Shown here piece after piece: positions 1 to 34,142 of a stretch of DNA of 34,282 nucleotides. The stretch is from a virus. A model generated the notes under the pieces. That model searched no databases and had not been told where the DNA came from. It was given only the letters and a program-made list of their open reading frames with translations. Where the stretch lies: the UHGV virus genome UHGV-0276200. One strand, given 5' to 3'. The stretch's first letter is position 1. Each line of letters starts with the position of its first letter. Both the position numbers and the translations under genes were made by a program.

Positions 1-577
1 CTGGCCTGAATCGACAGCGTTATTTTGTACGGCGGTCAGTGCATTCATCAGAAGCGATCCTCTTATGAGATGTAGGGTGACATGGCGATGCTCATTTCGT
101 AGCCATAATCTAAAAATATCTACATTTCTGAAAAATGCGCATAAAAGTTACATATTGTTTTCTTATTGTGATCAATAACAACAAATTAATAACAAATAAT
201 GTGAGGGATAAGAATTGGGTTGAAAGGAAATGAATAATTAAAACAATATATTAAGTGTGCTTATACTCTTTTCGAACTGGTGGCATTTGTTTAAATGCTA
301 TTTAAACTGCTTTTCCAGAGTTCAACTTACTGAGTTCCGTGTCGACTAATGTGAGTAAGATCAATCGCATCCAACCTATGTTACTTGATGGAATCGATAA
401 CAATATTAATGAATATACAGATTCCGGGAAGGCTGGCTATGGGGGCAAATTATTCTCTTTCTGGCAACGGGTAAATAACAGTGACCATTTGTCGAGAAGC
501 TGATACTGAGCTGAGGGATACTGTATATGTCTGGACTGTAATTGGATGAATTCTATTCAGGGCGGGTCAGGACCAAT

Positions 578-599
578 AAAAAAGCCCGCATCAGCGGGC
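578..599 (-). terminator. Rho-independent terminator-like hairpin (GCCCGC-ATCA-GCGGGC) followed by a T6 run on the minus strand
   Basis: Perfect 6-bp stem at 584-589/594-599 with a 4-nt loop; A6 run at 578-583 gives T6 after the stem on the minus strand. Only TTTAAT follows on the plus strand. Confidence 0.4.
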
Positions 600-729
600 T
601 TTAATGTCATAGGGAGTCGCGACTCCGTTGCGTATCCTTTTTTGTCTCCTCACCGTCTGGTCGGTGTCCTGCTGAGACTTATAACTTCCTGTTTTTGTTG
701 GTGTAGTCCTTACACCGTCCAATCATGAT

Positions 730-774
730 TGGTGGAGCTGGCGGGAGTTGAACCCGCGTCCGAAATTCCTACAT
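730..774. repeat. attL: 45-bp direct repeat identical to the 3' end of ssrA (prophage left junction)
   Basis: tggtggagctggcgggagttgaacccgcgtccgaaattcctacat is identical to 34098..34142; sequence diverges immediately after. Confidence 0.85.
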
Positions 775-893
775 ACCATTTTTACTATAACAAAAACAGT
801 AAATTTCGTTTGAAAACATATTGTTAATGTTATTTGGTGTTTGTCCGTTTTATAGGTTTTTAATGCTCTGCCGCCAAAATGTCGCCATTACTA

Positions 894-2099
894 TCATGGT
901 TTAATATGGGCATATACTTGAATTTCATCCATACAAGTTTCGAGTTTATAAAAGTCAGTTAAATTATAGATGTTCAAAATTTCATCATCTATGCTTCCTG
1001 TTAGCTCACGATTTTTTCTTCTTCGTAGCCTTCTGCTGAGATTCTCTCGATCGGATTGTGCAACTGATTCAGGCACGTACTCAACTGTTTTTAGGACCTG
1101 CCAAGATACAGGCAATGTGAATTTGAAAATTTTCGCTAGATTTGGACAAAATTCATTATTGGCCATCTCCTCGTAACGCACTTTTGGAGGAAGTACCACA
1201 TTTATTCCTCTGCTACCTAAGGCATTAGCAGGTAATTTTGTTGAGCGGTAGGCTATACCAACAACATTCTCATTGCTGTTCCGACTGATCCATTGCATCA
1301 AAAGATTGGGGATAATATATTCTTGTACAAAGGAAGCATTGTCATATTTTTTTAAATAATTGCATGCAATTATCAAAGGCCAAAGTGCTAAATATGAGAG
1401 TTTGGTATTGAAATCATATTTGTTCTTTCTTTTTGACTCTAATATAGATCTCTGTTTATATAAAAAATCAGGTCCTATATTTAGTACCTTTGAGTCATTA
1501 TTTTTATCGATCTTGTAGGCAGATATATATAGCTTATCAAAATCTGGCTTATCCATTTCTCTCCAGCATATATAAAGAGATGTTCCTAAATATAAACAGG
1601 GTAGACCAGCAACTGAAAATCTCTGTGCTCTAACAAAGTGACGCTGACTGAACGGAATATGAAACATATCTCTTCTTGATGTAAGTGGCGTATCAGATTT
1701 TCTAACGCGGAATAATGGTTTATCTTCATTACATAAGTCAGAAAGAGGTATGCATATATTTTCAATATGACGAGATATAGTTCGTGGCTCTAGCATACTT
1801 TCAAATGAGTCATATGCCGACTTAATATCCCCTGATAAAAAACACTCTAAACACGAGACGATTTCTTTCTGCATGATATCTACAGCTCTAAGTCTATTGC
1901 GCAAGCGTAAACTTAACCTGTTATCATTTTCCTGGATGTAATCTACTAAACAACCCCGGAATTTACTGCATTTTAGAGCGAAGTCATCTATCAAAGTAAG
2001 GTTTTTTTCAATCTCAATTGGTGGTCGAATACTTGATTTTTTTCTAATAGTGTCAAAAAGATTATTAAGTTCTTCATCGAGTTCTTGTTGAATATGCAT
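894..2099 (-). CDS. Hypothetical AT-rich cargo protein (401 aa) downstream of int; central segment resembles a RES-domain signature (tentative)
   Basis: Uninterrupted 401-codon ORF starting 9 nt after the int stop, with no obvious SD. Much lower GC than backbone. Segment FRVRKSD...QRFSVAGLPCLYLGTSLYICWRE matches the R-F-x...P-x-LYL-x-x-S...C-x-x-E pattern recalled for RES toxins such as MbcT. Confidence 0.6.
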   Translation of the reverse strand: MHIQQELDEELNNLFDTIRKKSSIRPPIEIEKNLTLIDDFALKCSKFRGCLVDYIQENDNRLSLRLRNRLRAVDIMQKEIVSCLECFLSGDIKSAYDSFESMLEPRTISRHIENICIPLSDLCNEDKPLFRVRKSDTPLTSRRDMFHIPFSQRHFVRAQRFSVAGLPCLYLGTSLYICWREMDKPDFDKLYISAYKIDKNNDSKVLNIGPDFLYKQRSILESKRKNKYDFNTKLSYLALWPLIIACNYLKKYDNASFVQEYIIPNLLMQWISRNSNENVVGIAYRSTKLPANALGSRGINVVLPPKVRYEEMANNEFCPNLAKIFKFTLPVSWQVLKTVEYVPESVAQSDRENLSRRLRRRKNRELTGSIDDEILNIYNLTDFYKLETCMDEIQVYAHIKP

Positions 2100-2108
2100 T
2101 TTTATTTA

Positions 2109-3125
2109 TCACTTTAAGTTAAATAAGGGGTTTTTAGTAACAGCATCTTCAAGATGTTCTGGTGCGAAATGGGCATAGACCATTGTCATTTTTATATCTG
2201 AGTGCCCTAAAATATCTCTCAATACAAGAATATTTCCGCCATTCATCATAAAGTGACTAGCGAATGTATGGCGCAATACATGCGTGCACTGGCCCTCTGG
2301 CAAGTCAATACCTGCTCTTTTTACTGCACGCTCAAAAGATTTTCTGCATGGCGTGAATAACTTCCCTCTGTTTTTGGGGAGTTCGTGATACAGATCTTGA
2401 GATATTGGTACTGTTCTGTTTTTCTTGCCCTTTGTCTTTGTATAAGTAATTCGGTATTTCGATATTTGGTGGCCCTGAAGGTTTTCGGCTTCACTCCACC
2501 GTGCGCCGGTAGCTAAGCATATTTTTGCAATCATTAGTAGGCTCGGGCTTTGAGATTCAGCACATGCAGCCAACAGGCGCTTGATTTCGTCCACGGAAAG
2601 AAAAGCCAGCTCACCTTCGGTAATTTTGAAGGTCGGAAGTCCTGCCAGCGGGTTTGGTGCTGACCAGTGTCCTAGTTTTTTTAATGTACCGAACACCGAT
2701 GATAGATTGCGCTGTTCAAGGTTTACCGTGCGGGGCTTAACGGGCGACATAAGCGTGCCATCTTCATTTCGTACTTCACCTTTTAACCGTGCTTCGCGGT
2801 ATTTCGTAAAGTCACCGGCTGTTAGTTCTGAGGCGATGGGATCGCCTAGACCATTACAGATAATTCTAAGTTTCGCCATGAGGCGCTTGGGGTCTGCGAG
2901 TGTTTGACCATACAGGGAATACCACTGCTCAATTAATTCTGATAGGTGTCGCCGATCTTCCTTTTCCCCCAGCCATGGTTTTTTGTTCACTTCTTCCATT
3001 GTGAAGCTTTCAAAAGCAATGGCTTCGCCTTTCGTAGCAAATTGCTTACGCACGCGCTTGCCATTGCGTCCATTGGGATAGCACTCGCACAACCATTTAC
3101 CGTTTGGCTGTTTTCTGACAGTCAT
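2109..3125 (-). CDS. int: Tyrosine integrase (P2 Int family)
   Basis: 338 aa. N-terminus GRNGKRVRKQF...AFE resembles P2 Int; C-terminus has HxLRHTFAS...GH...MVYAH catalytic R/H/R/Y-type motifs. Located next to the att site. Confidence 0.9.
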   Translation of the reverse strand: MTVRKQPNGKWLCECYPNGRNGKRVRKQFATKGEAIAFESFTMEEVNKKPWLGEKEDRRHLSELIEQWYSLYGQTLADPKRLMAKLRIICNGLGDPIASELTAGDFTKYREARLKGEVRNEDGTLMSPVKPRTVNLEQRNLSSVFGTLKKLGHWSAPNPLAGLPTFKITEGELAFLSVDEIKRLLAACAESQSPSLLMIAKICLATGARWSEAENLQGHQISKYRITYTKTKGKKNRTVPISQDLYHELPKNRGKLFTPCRKSFERAVKRAGIDLPEGQCTHVLRHTFASHFMMNGGNILVLRDILGHSDIKMTMVYAHFAPEHLEDAVTKNPLFNLK

Positions 3126-3127
3126 GT

Positions 3128-3760
3128 TTAGATACTCTTTATTACTTTGACTGCACGCCCAATAACTTCCACATCATCAGTAGAGCACTCGAAAGACGCT
3201 TCATCTTGATTTACTACAATCTTATTGCCGGGAATCCGCATGATTTTTGCAACAATAATCATTCCATCAATATTGATAAGCCAGAATCCATTGCTGACCT
3301 GTTTAATTGATTTATCGATGAGATAACAATCAGTAGGGGTTTCTAAGAACATCGATTCTTCATAATCTGCAGGTAATATGCTGTGGTCTAGGAAAATCTC
3401 TTCATCAATACTGAGTTGTCCATTCTCCAGGGTTCCTTTAGGAATAGCTGGAGTTATGAGTTTGGATAACGGTTTAATTGCTTGTTTGTTCTCATTATGA
3501 GAACTTTTCTCAGGCTCAGCTCCTCCTTTCATGCTTCCCTGTCCTGTAGCTAACCAAAGCAACGAAACACCGGTTTCTAGTGCGCACTGAATTATCCAGT
3601 CAGCAGGAAAGCTGTCACGTAACACTCTGTTTGCCATAGTGCTTTTTGAGACATTCAGGTGCTCGCTTAATGCCTGCTTAGTTGTGAATCCATAAGCCTC
3701 AAGCAGCCTTTCAATAGCTGCCTTACCTCCCGTATCGGAACCCATTCTGATGTTTAACAT
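3128..3760 (-). CDS. cI: CI-type immunity repressor (186-like)
   Basis: 210 aa with N-terminal HTH-like region (TKQALSEHLNVSKSTMANR...CALETGVSLLWLATGQG). Divergent from apl/cII across a promoter/operator region, as in 186. Confidence 0.75.
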   Translation of the reverse strand: MLNIRMGSDTGGKAAIERLLEAYGFTTKQALSEHLNVSKSTMANRVLRDSFPADWIIQCALETGVSLLWLATGQGSMKGGAEPEKSSHNENKQAIKPLSKLITPAIPKGTLENGQLSIDEEIFLDHSILPADYEESMFLETPTDCYLIDKSIKQVSNGFWLINIDGMIIVAKIMRIPGNKIVVNQDEASFECSTDDVEVIGRAVKVIKSI

Positions 3761-3773
3761 TGGTAATCTCCAT

Positions 3774-3802
3774 TTGACAATCTTGAATCAAGATCGTAAT
3801 GT
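3774..3802 (+). promoter_or_regulatory. Putative rightward early promoter (pR-like) with embedded operator palindrome
   Basis: -35 TTGACA (3774-3779), 17-bp spacer, -10 TAATGT (3797-3802). Perfect 6-1-6 palindrome TCTTGA-A-TCAAGA at 3781-3793 inside the spacer. About 80 bp upstream of apl. Confidence 0.5.
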
Positions 3803-3881
3803 CTTCATGTCTCTTGATGTGAGAGTTTAAGAGACGGGCTAAAACGAACTAACACGCACACAAAGTAAGAGATACTGCACT

Positions 3882-4124
3882 ATGAGTACTGATATTTCAA
3901 TTCGTGTACCAAAAGAGATGGCTACGCCTGCAGAGTTCGCAGAGTGGGAGGGTATTTCCCGCGGCTCTGTTTACCAAAAAATTCACCATGGTCAACTTGC
4001 TAAGTACATGGTCAAGAAAGAAAAAAACAAAGGTCGCGTAAGCCTGCGTTATCTGATGTACAAAACCGATCAGGTCCGTGAATCCCTCGGTCATTCCAAC
4101 TTCCGAGTCATTGTTGGTAAGTAA
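3882..4124 (+). CDS. apl: Cox/Apl-family excisionase and transcriptional regulator
   Basis: 80 aa; first rightward gene opposite cI. Segment PAEFAEWEGISRGSVYQKIHHGQL resembles the HTH region of P2 Cox. Confidence 0.6.
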   Translation: MSTDISIRVPKEMATPAEFAEWEGISRGSVYQKIHHGQLAKYMVKKEKNKGRVSLRYLMYKTDQVRESLGHSNFRVIVGK

Positions 4125-4157
4125 GTTCAATTATGGGAACTTTCTAAGGGGGGCACC

Positions 4158-4667
4158 ATGTTTGATTACAAGATTTCCAAACATCCGCATTTCGATGAAG
4201 CCTGTAGGGCTTTTGCACTGCGCCACAACCTGGTGCAACTGGCAGAACGTGCAGGCATGAATGTGCAGATTCTGCGGAACAAGCTGAACCCAGCTCAACC
4301 TCATTTATTAACTGCACCAGAAATCTGGTTGCTTACCGATCTGACTGAAGATTCAACGCTGGTAGATGGTTTTCTGGCTCAGATTCACTGCCTGCCATGT
4401 GTACCGATTAATGAGGTGGCAAAAGAGAAACTGCCACATTACGTCATGAGTGCAACCGCAGAGATCGGGCGTGTTGCTGCAGGTGCGGTATCTGGCGATG
4501 TAAAAACCAGTGCAGGTCGTCGTGATGCTATCAGCAGCATTAACTCTGTAACACGACTGATGGCGCTGGCTGCTGTTTCATTGCAGGCCCGTTTACAGGC
4601 TAACCCTGCGATGGCGAGTGCAGTTGATACCGTGACTGGCCTCGGTGCTTCATTCGGTTTGCTGTGA
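4158..4667 (+). CDS. cII: CII-like lysogeny establishment regulator (186 CII family)
   Basis: 169 aa, the same length as 186 CII, in the canonical position after apl. Good RBS (aaggggg) before the ATG. Confidence 0.7.
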
Positions 4668-4674
4668 GGTGCTT

Positions 4675-4875
4675 ATGCTGACGAAAGAACCATCATTTGC
4701 ATCGCTGCTGGTAAAACAAAGTCCGGCAATGCACTACGGTCACGGCTGGATAATGGGTAAGGATGGTAAACGCTGGCATCCGTGCCGTTCACAAGATGAA
4801 TTGCTGGCAGAACTATCAACGAAAAAACGGGGGAACAAATGGCTATTGAAGGCGCTGCGGCGACTGTTCCATTAA
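4675..4875 (+). CDS. Small hypothetical early protein
   Basis: ATG at 4675 preceded by GAGGTG, directly after the cII stop. The track ORF 4645 is an N-terminal over-extension. Confidence 0.4.
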   Translation: MLTKEPSFASLLVKQSPAMHYGHGWIMGKDGKRWHPCRSQDELLAELSTKKRGNKWLLKALRRLFH

Positions 4876-4975
4876 GCCCCGGCGAACGCCTGAATGGACT
4901 TAATCACATTGCGGAATTAAGGGCGAAAGTTTTGGCCTTAATATTGAGTCAGAGCTTGAGCGGTTTATTAAAGAT

Positions 4976-5179
4976 ATGCGTGATCCACGGGATATCAATA
5001 ATGAACAAAATAAACGGGCACTGGCTGCCATATTCTTTATGGCAAAAATTCCAGCTGAACGTCATAGCATCAGCATTAGTGAGCTGACCACTGATGAAAA
5101 GCGGGAGTTGATTAAAGCAATGAATCATTTTCGTGCAGTGGTGAGCTTATTTCCAAGACGGCTAACCATGCCGAATTAA
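4976..5179 (+). CDS. Small hypothetical early protein (possibly the 3' part of a frame-disrupted gene)
   Basis: 67-aa ORF with a protein-like composition. The upstream overlapping ORF 4839..5087 in another frame has a plausible N-terminus but a junk-like C-terminus. Confidence 0.3.
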   Translation: MRDPRDINNEQNKRALAAIFFMAKIPAERHSISISELTTDEKRELIKAMNHFRAVVSLFPRRLTMPN

Positions 5180-5246
5180 CCAACTAATGAAATTAATGGC
5201 GTAAACCCGCCGGGCATCCCTTTATCTAAATTCAGGAGAATTGATT

Positions 5247-33472: not shown

Positions 33473-33496
33473 AACCTGCTACGGCAGGTTTTTATT
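33473..33496. terminator. Bidirectional terminator hairpin between convergent ogr and the WYL-BRCT gene
   Basis: AACCTGC-TACG-GCAGGTT (7-bp stem) followed by TTTATT on the plus strand; placed just after both stop codons. Confidence 0.5.
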
Positions 33497-33974
33497 CATC
33501 TGGGATCTCACCCGTTTCAAGAAAATGTATAAAGCCAGGCTCATCTATGATGATAGTGCCTTTCATCCTGGCTGCCGATACTTTTGATGGGCCTGCATTG
33601 TAACCGCAACAGAGCATCTGAAGGTTTTGGGTTACAGATGTTCTTACCGTTAATCCTTGTTCATTCGCCTTATCAACCAACCTTTCTTTATCTGCTTTCT
33701 TAAATCCGGTGAAACACACATCGAATGTATTTTTTTTCGGACCTGACTGCTTAGTGAGATGTGAGTAGTTTTCGGGGAGGAATGACGCGCATTCCTGAAT
33801 GGCTTGTTCTTGTGAATCGTATTGTTTAAGAATGCGGTCTTTTCGGAAGGTTTTTATTCGATCGGTGTTCTTACAAATGCCCTGTATGTGATTTTCGCTA
33901 TAACTGATGCTCTGTATTGAGTGAACACCGATACGACCATTTGCATTGATGTAAACAAAGTGAAGTTCTTCCAT
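33492..33974 (-). CDS. Hypothetical cargo protein: N-terminal WYL-like domain fused to C-terminal BRCT domain
   Basis: 160 aa. N-terminus YINANGRIGVHSIQSISYSENHIQGICKNTDRIKTFRKDRI fits the WYL pattern (...R.FR.DRI). C-terminus VCFTGF...KERLVDKANEQGLTVRTSVTQNLQMLCCGYNAGPSKVSAARMKGTIIIDEPGF aligns with the BRCT domain of NAD-dependent ligase LigA. AGAGG RBS; about 42% GC. Confidence 0.6.
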   Translation of the reverse strand: MEELHFVYINANGRIGVHSIQSISYSENHIQGICKNTDRIKTFRKDRILKQYDSQEQAIQECASFLPENYSHLTKQSGPKKNTFDVCFTGFKKADKERLVDKANEQGLTVRTSVTQNLQMLCCGYNAGPSKVSAARMKGTIIIDEPGFIHFLETGEIPDE

Positions 33975-34089: not shown

Positions 34090-34097
34090 GATTTATT

Positions 34098-34142
34098 TGG
34101 TGGAGCTGGCGGGAGTTGAACCCGCGTCCGAAATTCCTACAT
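34098..34142. repeat. attR core: 45-bp direct repeat (3' end of intact ssrA)
   Basis: Identical to 730..774. Confidence 0.85.

Follow-up and report, generated by a model that had tools for sequence, protein, structure and literature searches.

Genomic context and gene organization

The window analysed here, the 34,282-nucleotide virus genome UHGV-0276200, carries close to its left end an intact open reading frame (ORF), CARTA_33 (WP_001429732.1; 894..2099, minus strand), which encodes a long-form protein with a predicted RES fold and is the subject of this report. Positions 1-4200 of the window are 100% identical to the Escherichia coli LF82 chromosome (NC_011993.1, in which the ORF takes up 2767984-2769189), beside glaH, and Escherichia phage Cartapus (OV696611.1; Peduoviridae, P2/186/Fels-2-like) has the ORF region in identical form. 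The window is the P2/186-like prophage Cartapus of E. coli LF82. A 46-bp copy of the 3′ end of ssrA (tmRNA) forms the att core of the left boundary (729..774) and is repeated exactly, in direct orientation, at the right boundary (34097..34142); since the published boundaries also translate to window positions 730-34097, the prophage occupies nearly the whole window. A tmRNA fragment at 730-809 was the sole Rfam match. The integration site is ssrA itself, the left att copy being a remnant of its 3′ end, beyond which host DNA continues toward glaH. On this left side CARTA_33 is the final prophage gene, placed between the integrase gene and the att core and about 120 bp from the latter.

The ORF opens with an ATG at position 2099 and runs for 401 codons plus a stop. 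Immediately upstream on the same strand, the tyrosine integrase gene int (2109..3125, minus strand; Pfam Int_N 9e-29, Phage_integrase 6e-24) ends with a TGA stop at 2111-2109, after which exactly 9 nt follow (TAAATAAAA; 2100..2108, minus strand), a spacer with neither a terminator nor a strong Shine-Dalgarno sequence. A 2 nt gap separates int from the end of the gene for a 186-type CI repressor, cI (3128..3760, minus strand; Pfam Phage_CI_repr 2e-30, Phage_CI_C 4e-30), the first gene of the leftward, lysogenic unit. With gaps of 2 and 9 nt, cI, int and CARTA_33 are tightly packed. An initial annotation, made from the sequence alone, had placed a 401-codon ORF 9 nt past the int stop on the same strand, and the exact coordinates confirm it. 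Apart from one promoter-like site within cI, the stretch from cI to the ORF was free of terminator-like and sigma-70-like sites in our terminator and promoter scan, and the first terminator-like hairpin downstream on the same strand (581..602, minus strand) lies in host DNA past att.

Diverged sister prophages join the gene to int just as closely, at -4 to +9 nt. In the Salmonella phage SopEPhi, the first 4 nt of orfY coincide with the end of int, and four further loci (L006 and L009-L011) have a 4-nt overlap or a gap of 1-4 nt. The view that the ORF is appended to cI and int was upheld on both counts, by the lack of a terminator or promoter consensus between them and by the tight junction in the sister prophages. 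Seven enterobacterial prophages have a homologue (X) in a cI-int-X arrangement, one of them ordered cI-X-int; this one is from Klebsiella sp. R390 (L012, 4398-7255), in which the homologue stands between a cI-like gene and the integrase, an order that recalls the cI-int hotspot reported in K139-like Vibrio phages (PMC9122126).

Published RNA sequencing (RNA-seq) of the LF82 lysogen shows that cI is expressed and that int RNA amounts to about one third of cI RNA, so that transcription reads through past cI. In phage 186, both cI and int are transcribed from the lysogenic promoter, which makes it likely that CARTA_33 is co-transcribed with the two genes in the lysogen.

The GC content of the ORF is 34.6% (GC3 28%), against 45.3% for int, 40.9% for cI, 52.2% for the remaining prophage and 50.7% for the window. 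It is indeed far below the backbone, as had been remarked, and on this account we regard CARTA_33 as acquired cargo. By our own calculation, stop codons would make up about 7% of random codons at the base composition of the ORF, and a 401-codon open frame would arise by chance with a probability of about 1e-13. This length in AT-rich DNA, together with at least 298 homologues of the protein, excludes both a fortuitous open frame and an artefact of annotation.

Predicted structure and active site of the CARTA_33 protein

Support for the RES reading comes chiefly from structure. Using an alignment of 52 diverse family members from many phyla and no templates, AlphaFold2 (AF2) returned a model with a predicted local distance difference test score (pLDDT) of 91.2 and a predicted template modelling score (pTM) of 0.91. 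This prediction, of a kind proposed as a check in the initial annotation, settles an RES/ADP-ribosyltransferase (ART)-type fold. An earlier AF2 run with 23 close homologues had given a pLDDT below 50 for core residues 132-194 and was set aside for the 52-sequence run.

The predicted protein falls into three parts, all encoded on the minus strand. An N-terminal helical bundle (aa 1-115; 1755..2099), with helices at residues 2-22, 36-57, 61-88, 92-103 and 106-115, precedes the RES (ART-superfamily) catalytic core (aa 116-345; 1065..1754), in which a loop at about aa 208-232 is poorly conserved and was modelled with low confidence. A three-helix region (aa 346-401 plus the stop; 894..1064), with its helices within aa 348-393, closes the chain. 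The high pTM indicates that the N-domain, the core and the C-terminal helices pack as one body. On the strength of the model we are highly confident that aa 116-345 form a genuine but divergent RES domain of ART fold. Across the family, identity to the window protein is 35-43% in the core and about 15% in the N- and C-terminal parts, which match generic helical bundles only. The N-domain carries a motif, Y/F-L-x-G90-x4-A-Y, whose G90 is at least 90% conserved across the family, and in the fast-evolving C-terminal region Y378 is invariant and F383 nearly so.

The RES signature quoted in the initial annotation is present exactly, as R160, P167-x-LYL-x-x-S174 and C178-x-x-E181, and is preceded also by R131 and R133. 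In the translation, the first-strand motif R131-V-R133-K-S, within FRVRK, is encoded at 1695..1709, the active-site stretch R160-FSVAGLPCL-Y170-LGTS174-LYICWR-E181 at 1557..1622, and the segment from S286 to N300 at 1200..1244 (all minus strand). The arginine, tyrosine and glutamate put forward as catalytic candidates proved invariant: R133, R160, Y170 and E181 occur in 52/52 family members, N300 in 51/52 and S286 in 46/52 (S or T in 51/52). For comparison with known RES toxins, hhalign pairs Y170 with Y58 and E181 with E69 of MbcT from Mycobacterium tuberculosis. By spacing, R160 would be the equivalent of MbcT R47, and by its first-strand position and motif order R133 would be that of MbcT R27 and of R23 in NatT from Pseudomonas aeruginosa; S286 and N300, placed by order and spacing and not superposed, would be the RES serine and the asparagine of the R-Y-N triad (NatT S184 and N193). 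The toxicity of MbcT is abolished by R27A, R47A and Y58A (PMC6436930), and the listed active site of NatT comprises R23, R82, Y93, S184 and N193 (PMC11535050). Given that the 52 members share only about 25-30% overall identity with the window protein, the invariance of these residues indicates that the catalytic apparatus is under strong constraint.

The domain model concerned is Pfam RES (PF08808; COG5654, ART superfamily), which has a gathering score of 23.2 bits and a profile length of 157. Twenty-two of the 52 diverse homologues match it at E <= 0.01. Among ten homologues sampled, one, P0265, passes the gathering score with 26.7 bits over profile positions 2-128 of 157, and six more reach 18-21 bits over about positions 6-137. 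In the profile check that had been suggested, part of the family thus reaches the RES model, and CARTA_33 itself stays below threshold. The CARTA_33 protein has no match in NCBIfam, and in PHROGs it falls in families of 'unknown function' only. An RES label already stands in the public record, since the European Nucleotide Archive (ENA) entry OV696611.1 describes CARTA_33 as 'putative RES protein, NAD+ binding domain', and the RES identification as such is therefore not new. UniRef and RefSeq use the label for some homologues and for YopC of the Bacillus prophage SPbeta; RefSeq gives 'hypothetical' for CARTA_33 and all E. coli alleles.

Family, partner genes and distribution

A profile of 23 enterobacterial homologues retrieved 2,685 clusters at E <= 1e-3 and 964 at E <= 1e-30 (counted at the 50% identity level), nearly all of them 350-420 aa long and aligned over most of their length. 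At 401 aa, against 144-250 aa for solved RES toxin chains, CARTA_33 is about twice the typical size, as had been stated. The measurement stands, but the size is no peculiarity of this protein: it is standard in a very large family and not a local fusion. Some members are longer still (P0149, 611 aa; P0259, 543 aa; P0266, 494 aa; P0206, 461 aa), with an extra N- or C-terminal 60-250 aa that could be alternative sensor or targeting modules.

No antitoxin gene was found at the CARTA_33 locus, where int and cI lie upstream and the att core downstream, and the earlier statement that no Xre-type antitoxin gene is adjacent is correct. Outside CARTA_33, the stretch between int and att contains no further ORF of at least 40 aa, and a search of the locus for a hidden partner gave no small ORF, no RNA family save the tmRNA fragment, and no promoter or terminator. 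When neighbouring genes were clustered for 79 genomic loci from many phyla, three genes per side, none was common to the loci and contexts were lineage-specific only; a conserved partner gene for the family was rejected on this basis. Nine small ORFs upstream of homologues lack a helix-turn-helix (HTH) domain, the toxin-binding domain of RES antitoxins (which we take to be represented by the model Xre_MbcA_ParS_C) matched none of the 52 members, and hhalign of the family against the MbcT antitoxin MbcA returned nothing. Among the small upstream genes, the sole HTH neighbour is yopB of SPbeta (L003, 3276-4939), a 75-aa Cro/C1-type HTH gene (HTH_26, E 4e-17) directly upstream of the 442-aa yopC, with which it could form a regulator/toxin pair.

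Some homologues adjoin a type I HsdR, a DNA methylase, a STAND-TPR NTPase, an SNF2 helicase, a DUF4209 protein, a GIY-YIG nuclease or a TrwC relaxase. Neighbourhoods of this sort are those of defence islands and mobile elements. At seven Bacteroidota loci (L036, 1811-5996; likewise L042, L045, L048, L053, L057 and L065), a conserved cluster comprises a PtuB-like HNH gene (E 6e-39 to Septu PtuB), a 507-aa GHKL-type ATPase, a 220-aa protein without family match and a long RES homologue of 365 aa, the last three genes overlapping at their ends. This cluster may be a multi-gene system with the RES protein as its effector. In E. coli, carriage is limited to 38 of 5,426 complete genomes, always as a single chromosomal copy. 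A 65%-identical homologue occurs in Salmonella on at least 1,000 contigs.

The integrase-att cargo slot

CARTA_33 is the cargo of a variable slot that P2-like prophages have between integrase and att. In sister prophages whose integrases are at least 89% identical, the same slot holds unrelated genes of 222 aa (L086, 2361-3029, minus strand), 506 aa (L089, 2727-4247, plus strand) or 128 aa (L088, 2525-2911, plus strand), or a 65%-identical 412-aa allele. Among the first three, the sole family matches are very weak ones in PADLOC (1TM-TIR, E 0.007; 2TM effector, E 0.009), which we do not trust. In a 2026 survey of thousands of P2-like prophages, integrase-att was a minor defence hotspot that held 3% of the recognised systems (PMC13586616), and CARTA_33 is not among the recognised P2 systems of this hotspot.

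A second cargo gene, CARTA_32 (33492-33974, minus strand; 160 aa, annotated 'putative exonuclease'), is found between the right att core and ogr. Once the phage genome is circular, this gene follows the RES gene on the far side of attP, with both in one orientation, and in the prophage it lies directly downstream of host ssrA. It is the top-expressed Cartapus moron in LF82, 15-fold over background (PMC9928086). In the early rightward operon, a DUF5347 gene (window about 4840-5180, plus strand) is frameshifted in LF82 and annotated as a pseudogene, so that it shows as two overlapping ORFs, 4839-5087 and 4976-5179.

A proposed role in abortive infection

Taking the locus, the fold and the family together, we propose, at close to even confidence, that CARTA_33 is a self-inhibited, NAD+-consuming RES abortive-infection effector made from the lysogenic operon. 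Taken singly, NAD+ consumption seems somewhat more likely than not, and a role in defence somewhat less likely than not. Since CARTA_33 ends the leftward cI-int unit, low-level synthesis in the lysogen would be most likely, through read-through from the repressor promoter, and it would be turned off when the prophage becomes lytic. The enzyme would hold NAD+ in an arginine-lined cleft formed by R133, R153, R160, Y170, E181 and N300 and would cleave it, by hydrolysis or else by the phosphorolysis known from MbcT and NatT, which yields ADP-ribose-1''-phosphate and nicotinamide. At rest, its own fast-evolving helical parts at the N- and C-terminal ends would keep it inactive. When a superinfecting phage supplied a cue, the inhibition would be lifted, NAD+ would collapse, and the cell would die or stall before the invader had finished its cycle, so that the infection aborts, which would protect the lysogen population and hence the prophage. 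More tentatively, the long-form, antitoxin-free RES proteins as a whole (about 2,700 clusters from many phyla) might be an unrecognised single-gene class of anti-phage immunity, each an NAD+ phosphorylase or NADase in which the helical parts would act as built-in antitoxin and phage sensor.

A number of results weigh against this proposal. All RES links of the CARTA_33 protein at the level of its own sequence are sub-threshold: its match to Pfam RES has an E value of 0.23 and 11.9 bits and covers aa 146-182 only, and its identity to MbcT is about 14%, without a significant connection between sequence profiles. Searches of the family profiles against PDB sequences found nothing, or designed helical bundles only. 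In hhalign comparisons of the diverse-family profile with MbcT alone, with a 27-member MbcT-family alignment and with an MbcA-MbcT read-through protein, the MbcT family gave a single 21-column match (window protein 166-186 to MbcT 54-74; probability 7-11%), which is too weak as a test of homology and was therefore used for residue mapping alone. Foldseek, a method too insensitive here, gave no significant match against the PDB and the viral BFVD, with faint matches to cholera/LT toxin and DarT. The G90 motif, being conserved across the family, could be structural or catalytic no less than part of a sensor, and RES enzymes can also be ADP-ribosyltransferases, as ParT is, so that NAD+ depletion is not the sole possible chemistry. 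The annotation used for the LF82 RNA-seq omitted CARTA_33; the table has no row for the gene, and it is not among the reported morons. PADLOC-DB 2.0.0 (2023) has no model that matches CARTA_33 at E <= 1; SPbeta YopC and the SCU-115 allele likewise have no match there. In the literature we found no functional study of YopC, orfY, CARTA_33, WP_001429732, phrog_7835 or RES in defence, an LF82 CRISPR interference preprint names Cartapus for its repressor only, and according to a 2024 study phage immunity had not yet been traced to any RES system (PMC11535050). For CARTA_33, the chemistry, the self-inhibition, the trigger, the expression in the lysogen and the defence phenotype are all what we infer, and the self-inhibition purely so; the same holds for the sensor function and the fused antitoxin-like domain suggested in the initial annotation, whose interpretation is thus supported in part.

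The main rival is that CARTA_33 could be a target-specific ADP-ribosyltransferase like ParT, which modifies Prs, acting on a host or phage protein or on nucleic acid, with the helical parts serving in substrate recognition. As far as it can be read, the CARTA_33 sequence does not separate ADP-ribosyl transfer from NAD+ degradation. Three of the four RES toxins for which the cited papers give a chemistry (MbcT, Res and NatT) degrade NAD+ (PMC11535050, PMC6436930), no candidate target is evident, and we consider this explanation unlikely. Among the lesser rivals, a module for host physiology or prophage maintenance, in which a low-level NAD+ phosphorylase would drive dormancy or persistence of a subpopulation as NatT does, or would penalise loss or misregulation of the prophage, to the benefit of the lysogen irrespective of other phages, is unlikelier again. 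Physiologically, RES toxins have so far been shown to act only in persistence, in growth arrest linked to stress and in plasmid stability (PMC11535050), and both the place of CARTA_33 in the lysogenic operon and the missing PADLOC defence signature would suit such a module. Against it, an addiction module would require a labile antidote, which is not encoded here; the gene occupies a variable cargo slot that is also a reported defence hotspot, its distant relatives are found among restriction, STAND and Septu-like genes and not in core genomes, and its carriage in E. coli is rare and patchy.

We give very little weight to a non-canonical toxin-antitoxin arrangement in which an HTH protein of the phage (CI here, YopB in SPbeta) would act as antitoxin in trans, with release on inactivation or loss of the repressor. 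CI is an HTH protein of the same operon with a faint match to an antitoxin Xre-like HTH model (E 0.22), and a cI-like gene in Klebsiella sp. R390 and yopB in SPbeta directly precede the respective homologues. Against this, neither CI nor YopB matches a toxin-binding domain of the kind found in RES antitoxins, most of the 79 loci have no HTH neighbour at all, and release at repressor inactivation would poison the lytic cycle of the phage itself. Equally improbable is a catalytically silent relic or structural accessory that hitch-hikes with the integrase. The sub-threshold RES matches of CARTA_33 would suit such a relic, but its active-site residues are invariant in 52 sequences from many phyla at so low an overall identity, the frame is intact in AT-rich DNA, and the architecture has been kept by about 2,700 family clusters.

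The natural role of the RES toxins, potent NAD+-destroying enzymes, continues to be debated. As far as the searched literature shows, what is new here is a very large, partner-less RES branch with a fixed three-part architecture and its occurrence in a prophage cargo slot behind cI-int. If CARTA_33 acts in defence, RES would be the next NAD+-destroying immune fold after TIR and SIR2, and this would be the first immune role for the RES superfamily. As an abortive-infection effector, the protein would represent a new NADase class in bacterial immunity and a compact one-gene model of a toxin tamed without an antitoxin, and a function would be at hand for thousands of 'hypothetical proteins', including SPbeta YopC and prophage genes of Salmonella, Klebsiella and E. 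coli. Should it turn out not to be a defence gene, it would still be an unusual, predicted solo RES enzyme of a prophage in a Crohn's-disease-associated E. coli strain.

Comparison with known systems

MbcT, the toxin of the Xre-RES system MbcTA of M. tuberculosis (PDB 6FKG), is 186 aa long, and its cleft is plugged by the C-terminus of a separate antitoxin, MbcA. The 401-aa chain of CARTA_33, in contrast, includes a helical N-domain of 115 aa that MbcT lacks, a larger core and helices at the C-terminus, and no antitoxin gene accompanies it. NatT/NatR of P. aeruginosa, Res/Xre of Pseudomonas putida, VPA0770/VPA0769 of Vibrio parahaemolyticus and ParT/ParS of Sphingobium are likewise two-gene type II modules with an HTH antitoxin. 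They are chromosomal or plasmid-borne, their roles being persistence, stasis or Prs modification and not phage defence, and NatT-type systems are reported to be absent from enterobacteria (PMC11535050). Closer to CARTA_33 are two phage-borne homologues. YopC of SPbeta, which RefSeq names 'RES domain-containing protein', shares 30.5% identity with it over aa 73-346, but is 442 aa long and follows the small HTH gene yopB rather than an integrase. The SopEPhi gene orfY encodes a homologue with 47% identity over the full length and has the same position as CARTA_33, overlapping the int stop.

At the level of mechanism, CapRel(SJ46), a fused toxin-antitoxin, DSR2 and other SIR2 or TIR NADases are single-chain or fused sensor-effector proteins of abortive infection, and the outcome in DSR, TIR and SIR2 systems is NAD+ depletion. 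DSR2 is also covered in PMC11850899. The catalytic folds of these proteins are unrelated to that of CARTA_33, for which autoinhibition and a trigger are only proposed. They nevertheless share the proposed logic of CARTA_33, in which a single polypeptide encoded by a prophage or island has a toxic catalytic domain that an accessory domain of the same chain restrains and that is freed once a phage protein is detected.

With regard to genomic setting, the nearest parallels are exclusion genes expressed by lysogens, namely rexAB of phage lambda, which is co-transcribed with cI, and old, tin and fun(Z) of P2. The hotspots of P2 have been described (PMC9122126, PMC13586616). Although the proteins and mechanisms of these genes differ from those of CARTA_33, and the integrase-att slot is only a minor hotspot, rexAB, old, tin and fun(Z) are AT-rich cargo in fixed variable slots of a conserved genome, expressed in the lysogen and directed against other phages, as we propose for CARTA_33.

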